Of a stretch of DNA of 64,000 nt, positions 22,021-34,116 are shown piece after piece (within the stretch, counting starts at the first letter, position 1; every line of letters begins with the position of its first letter). The stretch comes from Okamejei kenojei. Its lineage: Eukaryota. A model generated the notes under the pieces. The model was not told the DNA's origin and ran no database searches. It saw only the letters and a program-made list of their open reading frames with translations. The position numbers and the translations under genes were made by a program. The DNA lies in NCBI GenBank assembly GCA_035221665.1, contig CM069147.1:43958001-44022000 (forward strand), given 5' to 3'.

Positions 22021-22158
22021 TTCTTCTTCTTTCGTGTGGCGTGCACAGCCTAAAGTTGTTGGACAACTTGTTCTATTTGATTTCCCATATGTGCTCGTCG
22101 AGTTGATTGCATTAGTCGAAACAGGGCAGACCACGTGAAGGTTGCAATCTTCCACCCC
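22021..22158 (-). mobile_element. ~140-bp non-autonomous retroelement (Vingi/RTE-like) with 5' HDV-like ribozyme and (AAG)n tail
   Basis: Homologous to 32896-33035; ends CGCCACACGAAAGAAGAAGAA; approximate TSD TATATTTATTT at 22012-22022 and 22164-22174. Confidence 0.8.
22105..22158 (-). ncRNA. Minimal HDV-like self-cleaving ribozyme (predicted)
   Basis: GGGGUGG-AA-GAUUGCA-ACC-UUCACGU-GGU-CUGCCCU-G-U(UUCG)A-CUAA-UGCAAUC gives P1 with G1-U wobble, 7-bp P2, 3-bp P3, 7-nt L3, and a C in J4/2. Confidence 0.8.
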
Positions 22159-31670: not shown

Positions 31671-32895
31671 TTCAGGGAGCCTATAGGCCATCATATTAGT
31701 TGTAGATTCCTTTCCCTCCTAATTATGATCATTTTCATGTTAGCACCATTGTAAGAAGTAGGAGGAATACAGAGGCAACGAAAATTAGAATAGAAACTAA
31801 AGATAAAAGAGATGTATACCCATTCTGGAATATGCCACAAGCTTAATAGTCAGAGAAACTACTGTTATAATTCTTAAAGACAAAAATAAAGTTCTTATAT
31901 TTGTATTTTACAAATAGTTTTCATTGGAACGATGGCCAGAATCATAGGATTGAAATTGGTTAGCTCTTGAGAATGGATAATGGGATCAGAGAGTGCAATT
32001 AACCTGTGCCAGCTGCATTAATACCGACAACAACTTCTTCCTTCCAGCATATTTGTGTGATTGCTATGTAGAGCCAGTGTTAACCACTCTATTCATTGGC
32101 CGAGTGCCTCAACAGGGAACAAAACCATGAGTGACTGGTACCACTTAAAGCTACTTGGAGCCAAGAGCAGGAACATGCATTGTGATGGTTGTAAGTGCTG
32201 GTTGCTCTGGAACTCATTCTGACCTGGGATACACCGAAGATGGAGCTGTGTGCGAGAGAGAGAGAGGACTCTACATGTCTTGACATTACTTCCTTGGAAG
32301 CATTTATTGGAGGAGAGGAGGAAAAAGCAGAGGAGGAGAGATAAGGGTTCTTCCAGAAGGGACAGGATATCCTCACAGTTAGCCATGGAGTTCAAAACAA
32401 GAATCAAGCCCCATGTTCCTGTAGCCAGGAAAGTTTTTCAGATTGGAAAGAATTGTTCCTGAACCATTTCTTTTTCAGTGACCTCTGCAGAAACATTTAC
32501 TAATTGCAATGATCTCACTTTTCTGAGAAAGATCTTCTTGACTGAATAGACTTTCCTTTCGCCATGTTCTTGTAGAAGAAAATCCAAATGTAATTTGTCT
32601 AATATTCAGTTGAATCAAAGAAGAGCTTTGATTGAAAATCTCCTATTTGGAAATATTAGTTTTTATGAAATTTACAATTTTGTTTATAAAATGAAATATT
32701 ATAAATAGTATCACATGAAGGGAACTTAGGCTTATTTGATATGAAGACAAACACCATATTGATCTGCGCATTTGGTGAAATTTATTTAGCCTTGGCAGCA
32801 GGTTGTTTATTTTGGGTGGATTATTTTGGTTATCAATTAATCTCAGTGCTTGGAGAACACTTAGGGGGAAAAAAAACTGGCCATTATTAACAACT

Positions 32896-32949
32896 GGGGT
32901 GGGAGATTGCAACCTTTGCTTGGTCCGCCCAGTTTTGACCAATGCAATC
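32896..32949 (+). ncRNA. HDV-like ribozyme fold, partly decayed (predicted)
   Basis: GGGGUGG-GA-GAUUGCA-ACC-UUUGCUU-GGU-CCGCCCA-G-U(UUUG)A-CCAA-UGCAAUC; P2 and P3 intact, L3 and the G1 partner altered. Confidence 0.65.
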
Positions 32950-33035
32950 AACCTGACGTGCACGAACAAATAGATCAAATAGAACAAGTTGATTTTCAGC
33001 TTTAGGCTGTGCACGCCATACGCAAGAAGAAGAAG
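32896..33035 (+). mobile_element. Second copy of the ~140-bp HDV-like-ribozyme retroelement
   Basis: Starts GGGGTGGGAGATTGCAACC and ends GCCATACGCAAGAAGAAGAAG; TSD TTAACAACT at 32887-32895 and 33037-33045. Confidence 0.82.
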
Positions 33036-33103
33036 TTTAACAACTGCAGAGGAAAGGTGCGGTTAAATAAAATAAAGGCCTAGAAACAACTCCGTGATGG
33101 TCT

Positions 33104-33294
33104 GTGTAGGAAGGAACTGCAGATGCTGGTTTACACTAAAGATAGACACAAAATGCTGGTGTAACTCAGCGAGACAGGCAGCATCTCTGGAGAGAAGGAA
33201 TGGGTGATGTTCCAGGTCTGAAACGTCACCCATTCCTTCCCTCCAGGGAGGCTGCCTGTCTCGCTGAGTTACTCCAGCATTTTGTGTCTATCTT
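33104..33294. mobile_element. Penelope-derived fold-back element with the hammerhead core deleted
   Basis: 73-bp inverted arms 33139-33211/33222-33294 with 5 mismatches and a 10-nt loop. Confidence 0.85.
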
Positions 33295-34116
33295 CTATGA
33301 TGCTCAGTTGTTGCCTGTACAGAATTGTGGACCATCTCAATCCTGTTTGTAAAAAGCACACAGAATGTGAGAATTTCAGTTCTGAGGACGACAGAGGAGC
33401 TTTGTTGACTTTTCTCTGTGATGCCGATGTTATGTTGATAATCACATTTTTAGTTTGAGTGTGGCCACCTCAACTGATGTTCTGCAAATTCTTACTGCCT
33501 CAACATGGAGTACAGCATGTATGATTTTTGTGTTCAGGTTTTAAAGGGGGAGACCACTGTACAAGCAACACTCTTCCAACTACTGAGGAATGTTGCAACA
33601 TCATAAATAAATGCTGCAGTTAGGGAGATGATGAGGGATGGGGGGAGAGTCCTAGTGGGTCAAGGAGTCCTTGAGAAGTAGTGAAGATTAATGTCTGCAG
33701 GAGGCATGCACTTTGTCGACATGGTCACACTCCTGGTTGCTGAGGACGTTTCCCTATGGATATGAGTACAATCTCAAATACCTGTACTTTCAAGAAACCT
33801 GCAATGCAAGAAAATACCTGGCTAACCAACTATGCCCCTGGGCTGCAGGCAAAGTAGATGAAATCTCCACTCCTTAAGTGTGCAGTTTGTATAACTTCCC
33901 TATTGTAGCAGTGTGCAGCAACTTATGGTGTGGCAACCTGGAATAATCCTAAAACCGGAAAGCTGATAGTGATCCTGATGTCCATGTTCTAGGCAGTAAT
34001 GAAACGTGTGATGTTGGTTAGGAGGTCAGAAGGCAGCTCGAGTGTTGCCTCTTTAAATTGTGCAATTTCTGGCAAAATGTGTTTGGTAATGCCTAGTTAT
34101 TATTATTTGAGTAGAT

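Follow-up and report, generated by a model that had tools for sequence, protein, structure and literature searches.

The 140-bp element described here is a bipartite non-autonomous retroposon, composed of the two ends of a LINE and dispersed through the genome of Okamejei kenojei. Its copies carry a variable repeat tail, are flanked by target-site duplications (TSDs) of 8-14 bp and start at one particular G (G1) without inherited upstream sequence. The HDV-like pairing pattern of its head is kept through compensatory change in sister LINE families. We regard it as probable that the element is an internally deleted derivative of a 3.1-kb LINE family, here called family P, and that its RNA is cut from longer transcripts of the host by a minimal HDV-like ribozyme and copied to G1. 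We infer that the 5' end would be made by self-cleavage rather than by a transcription start at G1.

In the proposed mechanism, a source copy would be transcribed by read-through, and self-cleavage would leave an uncapped 5'-OH end at G1. The family P protein would recognise the 3' CATACGC-(AAG)n end, probably aided by a stem that pairs the two ends of the RNA, and prime at a nick. The enzyme would run off at G1, often adding one untemplated A, and the cDNA end could pair with a target T or TG, from which the second strand would start.

With some reserve, we also favour a broader reading in which the Vingi clade carries HDV-like ribozymes at +1 together with an end-pairing stem, the CPEB3 ribozyme is a domesticated Vingi 5' end, and a 53-nt version lacking P4 has reached ~10^4 copies. 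If this is true, the stem explains two-ended mini-elements and the CPEB3 ribozyme was no stand-alone invention. The importance of the work lies chiefly in the link to CPEB3 and in the end-pairing stem rather than in the copy from which it started. The human genome contains very few ribozymes, and the origin of one of them, the CPEB3 ribozyme, can now be tested. Moreover, P4-less HDV-like ribozymes have been reported almost only from phages, and thousands of natural variants are available here.

A decayed copy of a large family

The window is the whole stretch of 64,000 nucleotides that was analysed. The copy of interest (the focal copy, Table 1) has decayed and is in itself an unremarkable dead insertion, belonging to a type of element that is already known. 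Its TSD lies exactly where an earlier note on this sequence had placed it. The claim that the TSD abuts G1 holds as to the adjacency, with an ambiguity of 1 nt: because base 33046 is also G, the TSD is either 9 nt long and flush with G1 or 10 nt long and overlapping it. The second copy in the window does lie in the opposite orientation, is 80% identical to the focal copy and belongs to a different subfamily; its TSD stops 5 nt short of G1, with 5 extra bases between. As had been noted, P2 and P3 are identical in both copies, the G1 partner is A in the focal copy, and the loops differ, L3 being TTTGCTT in the focal copy and TTCACGT in the minus-strand copy. The swap of G-U for G-C in P1 is likewise real, but it is a private C-to-T change at position 31 of the minus-strand copy and reflects decay rather than covariation.

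Table 1. Positions of the focal copy, its parts and the other copy in the window.
Feature	Position	Strand	Remark
Whole bipartite non-autonomous retroposon copy (focal copy), 140 bp	32896..33035	+
Left TSD, TTAACAACT	32887..32895	+	9 nt (10 nt with G32896)
Right TSD, TTAACAACT	33037..33045	+	next base 33046 is G
G1	32896	+	base 5' of which cleavage is predicted
Predicted HDV-like ribozyme, 53 nt	32896..32948	+
P1 of predicted ribozyme	32896-32902/32925-32931	+
P2 of predicted ribozyme	32906-32911/32943-32948	+
P3 of predicted ribozyme	32912-32914/32922-32924	+
L3 of predicted ribozyme	32915-32921	+
G37 of predicted ribozyme	32932	+
Residual P4	32933-32938	+
Predicted catalytic C44	32939	+
Segment from the first 78 nt of LINE family P	32896..32973	+	68/78 identical to L252
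5' arm of the predicted stem pairing the two LINE-derived ends	32957..32964	+
Linker, 15 nt	32974..32988	+	judged from the sequence; matches neither LINE end; looks like a short duplication of preceding bases
3'-terminal segment of LINE family P (final codons, stop, 3' UTR, tail)	32989..33035	+	41/46 identical to L268
Stop codon within the LINE-derived 3' segment	33003-33005	+
3' arm of the predicted end-pairing stem	33008..33015	+
CATACGC motif	33017-33023	+
(AAG)4 tail	33024-33035	+	single T at 33036 before right TSD
Other copy in the window, different subfamily	22021..22158	-	intact HDV-like descriptor match

None of the 40 open reading frames of the window (at least 90 aa) had a Pfam match over the cut-off, and Rfam models gave 0 matches in the whole window at the gathering cut-off. 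A palindromic, very high-copy MITE-like element lies at 33103-33295, 57 bp downstream of the right TSD, and has many partial copies elsewhere in the window.

The family is large. A DNA search of the 2.76-Gb genome with the element gave 2,416 candidates, of which 40 were scored. Two exact internal 40-mers had 1,055 and 432 matches, which amounts to at least 1,487 core matches, and their reversed controls had 0. Density, as judged from 7 chance copies in 0.90 Mb of other loci, gives a rough figure of ~20,000 copies. There are three subfamilies, the members of which differ by ~4% from their own majority letters; the focal copy differs from the nearest subfamily at 12 of 128 positions. Contigs of four sequencing runs span its 5' junction, with some differences in the flank, indicating that the insertion is common to related organisms and not recent. 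Copies of the element are also inserted in Vingi-like LINE copies (L199/L257 and L149), one of them in its own parent family.

The element is a bipartite non-autonomous LINE of the SIDE/NARTc type and works like R2 SIDEs and NARTc. What is new is the Vingi-like parent, the P4-less core and the copy number; the kind is already known from SIDE, NARTc and bipartite Vingi elements. No earlier description of this family was found in the literature searched, outside Repbase and the 2011 Vingi paper. The R2 SIDEs of Drosophila are described as likewise short and internally deleted, with a 5' HDV-like ribozyme and a LINE 3' end, and as moved in trans; they are rare, specific to rDNA and dependent on R2/R1 proteins (PMC3414825). 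In contrast, the 140-bp element is dispersed in well over a thousand copies, has an APE-type parent and almost no P4. Internal-deletion derivatives of Vingi LINEs are reported to keep both ends in the same way (Kojima 2018, PMC5786205; PMC13708176). The trypanosomatid elements NARTc, RIME and SIDER, related to L1Tc/ingi, are reported as bipartite or degenerate derivatives of the Ingi clade with an HDV-like ribozyme at +1 (PMC4035085, PMC3383444). The Ingi clade is the sister of the Vingi clade. Those elements have protist hosts and a 77-nt Pr77 signature with promoter activity, whereas the 140-bp element has a vertebrate host and a 53-nt fold. To our knowledge, they do not carry an (AAG)n tail.

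A second short family, S2, of ~180-190 bp (L300, L301 and L303, at G000:C1:7839731, C31:24532819 and C27:20053964) has a P4-less HDV-like head, a GACTCG tail motif and TSDs of 9-12 bp.

The predicted ribozyme head and the start at G1

Positions 1-38 of the head are numbered after the CPEB3 ribozyme. The fold was assessed in an alignment of 10 heads from six LINE families and the 140-bp element (three short copies, one head each of P, B, D, F and C, and two of A). A nested double pseudoknot of P1, P1.1, P2 and P3, with a 7-bp P1 and a 3-bp P3, is present in the family heads. In the alignment, 97% of cells are paired. Both partners change in 11 of the 17 pairs, among them P1.1, which goes from C-G to U-A in family B. 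Shuffles reached the observed pairing in 0 of 500 cases and slid structures reached 36-45%, controls that are lenient because the rows are related and the structure was read from the same sequences. G1, U20, C24 and the C of J4/2 are invariant in 10 of 10 heads, and G25 is kept in 9. A hand-made descriptor, drawn up like the alignment after the heads had been seen, matched 14 times when run on 0.77 Mb of LINE loci, each time at an element head, and never in a resampled control of 3.86 Mb. It is passed by 19 of the 30 closest copies and by the minus-strand copy of the window; the focal copy fails.

Of P4, the 140-bp element retains only about one pair and a UUCG loop, and by its sequence the head is assigned to the minimal, P4-less subgroup of HDV-like folds. 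Minimal HDV-like/theta ribozymes likewise have an HDV-like core without a real P4 helix; they are reported to be active and to come nearly 99% from phages (PMC10879173), whereas here two families of retroposon heads in a vertebrate genome are of this form. Well-folded heads of SIDER elements are reported to have shown no activity in tests (PMC4035085). With P4 nearly absent, activity of the 140-bp element head cannot be assumed. The head did not reach any Rfam cut-off; its best match was RF02682 (14.4 bits, E 1.7), in register, and the family F head reached 32 bits (E 0.022) with the same model, also below the cut-off. RF00622, with a cut-off of 35 bits, did not match the window, L017 or L252. 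When three whole copies and a head with its flank were folded by free energy, z ranged from 0.0 to 1.6, which is uninformative for a pseudoknot.

The residual P4 loop also bears on a scarcely credible alternative, that the element is a polymerase III SINE with a chance HDV-like head, in which this loop would serve as the B box. The loop does resemble the B box, at least in what we take to be its consensus, and intact copies of the element contain no run of four T. However, the same head opens the 3.1-kb LINE, the head is not tRNA-derived, 0 tRNA genes were found in 7 loci, and the second P4-less family lacks the CG of the residual loop.

The focal copy is probably inactive as a ribozyme. Its lesions are C22U, A23G, G25U, U36A, C41U and a change to C at position 45, which together break the G1 pair and weaken P1.1; U36A also lets the flank pair across the cut site. 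The earlier prediction of inactivity, which had rested on the G1 partner and L3, is strengthened by the loss of C22 (P1.1), G25 (the G25-U20 wobble) and U36 (the G1 partner), from which inactivity is predicted. According to PMC4836649, the G25-U20 wobble probably positions the catalytic magnesium, and the change G1A is reported to lower CPEB3 cleavage from 92% to 3% (PMC8233481). In the proposed mechanism these three bases would have been lost after insertion, and the focal copy would now cleave poorly.

The start at G1 was examined across copies, as the earlier note had suggested. The sample comprised the first 30 loci of each 40-mer search, 60 copies in all; it was not selected for the 5' end, since the 40-mer patterns start at position 14. 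Of these copies, 58 were tailed, and 52 of the 58 had a TSD scoring at least 7. The TSD ended at 0 to +2 in 38 of the 52, at -1 to -4 in 5, at +3 to +6 in 6, and further off in 3; among mismatched pairs, 9 of 571 ended at 0 to +3. In an earlier set, the TSD (score at least 7) ended within -1 to +2 of G1 in 20 of 32 copies, compared with 0.9% of 992 mismatched pairs. Sequence shared upstream of G1 by most copies would have spoken against the proposal of the earlier note, and the 60 copies do not share any: pairwise identity is 27% at -20 to -1, 26% at -120 to -101 and 88% at +1 to +13.

An anchored test, in which the TSD was placed by bases -9 to -3 only, placed 48 of the 60 copies (50 of 880 mismatched pairs in the control). 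The copy starts flush at G1 in 44 of the 48, the target running to -1; the other 4 carry an extra T without a counterpart in the target, one of them doubtful. The proposal that the template begins at the predicted cleavage-site G is thus supported by flush junctions, the lack of common upstream sequence and a fold backed by compensatory changes.

A precise start by itself fits a promoter and self-cleavage alike. An unlikely but serious alternative is that RNA polymerase II starts at G1 from an internal promoter, and that the fold serves in translation, stability or protein binding or is only a back-up. The Pr77 region of L1Tc is reported to be promoter and ribozyme both (PMC3383444), and bipartite LINEs are expected to be polymerase II transcripts (Kojima 2018, PMC5786205). 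Two results argue against such a start. The first is that G stands at -1 in 0 of the 27 flush copies whose target is without G at +1. Capped templates would leave an extra G at this position, so there is no sign of a copied cap; no citation for the cap-derived G was found in the literature searched. A longer G run at the junction occurs in 4 of 90 sampled short copies (L005, L026, L085 and L247). The second is the conservation of the bases named above in the heads, which would be superfluous in a fold that cuts nothing.

The base at -1 is also biased. T stands there in 39 of the 60 copies, and the 4 non-target bases found at -1 are all T, as would be expected if the template RNA started at U-1, or if an exonuclease degraded it as far as the pseudoknot's edge with no need for catalysis. 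This alternative is very improbable: among the 18 anchored copies with a T-less target at -1, 14 are also without T there, so that the T is optional, as expected for untemplated addition, and the predicted catalytic C is conserved. The targets of the 48 anchored copies are themselves biased: 30 have T at -1 (p 3e-6), and 17 have G at +1 (p 0.012). Under the self-cleavage reading, and by analogy, the cDNA may end in an A added without template, whose pairing with T or TG in the target would produce this bias. R2 junctions from RNA cut at its own 5' end are reported to show untemplated bases and microhomology (PMC3774820). HDV cleavage is reported to be fastest with U at -1 (PMC1874588), and with the T bias most new copies would land in a favourable context.

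The parent LINE family and predicted pairing between its ends

Endonuclease searches gave several LINE families with a single ORF, here designated A to F and P. Family P carries the first 78 nt and the last 47 nt of the 140-bp element, the 3' part including the last ORF codons and the stop. The short copy L007 is identical to family P at 73 of 78 positions of the 5' part and 42 of 43 of the 3' part, and four LINE copies (L251, L253, L254 and L257) bear both ends matching the element. Family P is ~3.1 kb long with a single ORF and a 5' UTR of ~140 nt; L251 is a 3,044-bp copy that runs from G1 to the tail and has a TSD. There were ~53 candidates for the family P endonuclease region, and the translated copies are all broken. 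Families A, B, C, D, E and F were rejected as parent because the head or the 3' UTR differs, and the top 30 PF14529 matches comprised one unrelated two-ORF family without a match to the 140-bp element. This is a young LINE family, presumably Nimb-like, with copies 92-99% identical (L031-L060) and one open frame of 1,276 residues. A parent with a long P4 was not found; a gapped pattern had 45 matches, of which 0 were long-P4 versions. The terminal 19 nt of the 140-bp element recur in family F. As the shared ends suggest, the element would be mobilised in trans by the protein of its parent, and family F could also serve.

Of family P, 11 heads were compared. Their first base is G1 in 2 cases, lies at positions 2-3 in 3 and at 8-11 in 5, and is position 39 in the remaining one; inversion affects 4 of them, and 0 extend upstream with shared sequence. 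The heads that start at 8-11 (L253, L254, L255, L259 and L266) begin directly past the 5' strand of P1, where the enzyme may stall. The ribozyme head is inverted relative to the body in L152, L193, L203, L220, L264, L266, L273, L277, L279, L281 and L285; such heads in many LINE copies are as expected from twin priming. Eight family C copies (L139-L141, L154, L156, L157, L164 and L168) have a common upstream flank, and were therefore duplicated within a larger repeat and are not independent insertions.

Family P likely belongs to the Vingi clade, as judged from its layout, the reverse transcriptase (RT) clade and the likeness of a related head. Intact relatives have ~1,000 residues, with PF14529, PF03372 and PF00078 only, a C-terminal cysteine-histidine motif and no RNase H listed. 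L152, a family P copy, covers 919 of the 998 residues of such a relative, and the family has the single-ORF layout of APE and RT, without ORF1 or RNase H. Vingi elements are described in the same terms, as a compact single ORF with APE and RT and without RNase H (PMC13708176). An RT tree taken without named Vingi, Ingi or RTE reference proteins unites families P, A, B, C, D, F and H in one clade (100/99), from which rows that we take to be Nimb-, CR1- and L2-like are separate. Rows F_L163, G_L290, G_L292 and E_L149 were disregarded because they seem to contain unrelated inserted pieces, which leaves families G and E with no valid position; 8 short rows were omitted, and an L1-like locus yielded no row. 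A PDB sequence search returned only L1, R2 and intron RTs. Compared by eye, the family H head closely resembles the heads of Vingi-1_BF and Vingi-2_SPur in the supplement of PMC5786205.

In each LINE family, the sequence directly following the ribozyme is complementary to the one that directly precedes the tail motif. A first test on single decayed copies was weak for P (reached by 100 of 500 shuffles) and A (204 of 500). With all usable copies of five families, the own tail had the lowest duplex energy in 4 of 5 rows, and the median energy was reached by 17-21% of shuffles for P, 6-13% for A and at most 3% for B, D and F. In eight families, each end represented by one hand-picked, little-decayed copy, a choice that favours the result, perfect runs of 6-9 bp were best or tied in 8 of 8 rows and the energy was best in 5 of 8; 1 of 40,320 tail-to-head reassignments matches the true sum. 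Three families were examined once the idea had been formed: the result for H is clear (0 and 4 of 1,000 shuffles), and G and S2 alone are not significant (energy reached by 196 and 178 of 1,000 shuffles). The end-pairing stem may explain why both ends are retained and is a good lead, not proof. Why only few LINE clades yield two-ended non-autonomous elements was left open by Kojima 2018 (PMC5786205), and end-to-end pairing offers an answer. Vingi-1 is reported to be in use for gene insertion, with a template that carries both UTRs (PMC13708176), so the stem and the ribozyme are testable in the existing assay. In family B (L131-L137 and L167), the 3' UTR is complementary to the P2 3' strand of the ribozyme itself, where end pairing would compete with the ribozyme fold.

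Relation to the mammalian CPEB3 ribozyme

The CPEB3 ribozyme (RF00622) is reported to have the same L3, a G1-U36 wobble and one C-G pair in P1.1 (PMC4836649, PMC8233481), and its J4/2 is identical to that of one subfamily of the 140-bp element. It is a single conserved intronic copy with full P4; the sequences of P1, P2 and P3 in the 140-bp element are different and do not match RF00622. The model does find relatives elsewhere in this genome. It gave 59 candidates, 30 of them above the cut-off (best 66.8 bits), and none above it in 14 control genomes. The 20 matches examined in detail are heads of dispersed families, and the sister families G, H and S2 pass the cut-off. L286 is a 3,099-bp element with a CPEB3-like head, homologous ORF, tail and 10-bp TSD, and L289, a short copy with both ends, agrees with the Rfam consensus at 44 of the first 46 positions. 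Loci of families G and H with heads above the cut-off lie among L271-L305, such as G000:C14:7155335, C19:41379732 and C14:40547617.

Compared by eye, the head of the crocodilian Vingi-2_Gav and the CPEB3 ribozyme of the elephant agree at 38 of the 40 positions between 2 and 41, as well as at the last 14. Convergence is unlikely, since P1, J1/2 and P2 vary freely between families. Vingi heads are found in lancelet, sea urchin and crocodilians, the species being read from Repbase names, as well as in this genome, and the CPEB3 ribozyme has been described from marsupials and placentals (PMC8233481); given the wider spread of the Vingi heads, transfer from Vingi to CPEB3 is the simpler direction. 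Sequence likeness therefore makes it likely that the mammalian CPEB3 ribozyme came from a Vingi-like retrotransposon. No such link appeared in the literature searched, although it may already be described in subscription papers, Repbase, patents or bioRxiv supplements, and the main text of Bendixsen 2021 makes no mention of retrotransposition, origin or Vingi.

Two further elements have related heads. An element of ~90 bp at L294:2470-2570 consists of a family H head and a tail of ~25 bp, with no clear TSD. In the supplement of PMC5786205, alligator SINE2-1_AMi has a CPEB3-like head behind its tRNA part (61-127), with the P4 stem of CPEB3, and its 3' end, listed there as "unknown", shows a hairpin and a GACACG motif like the tails in this genome.
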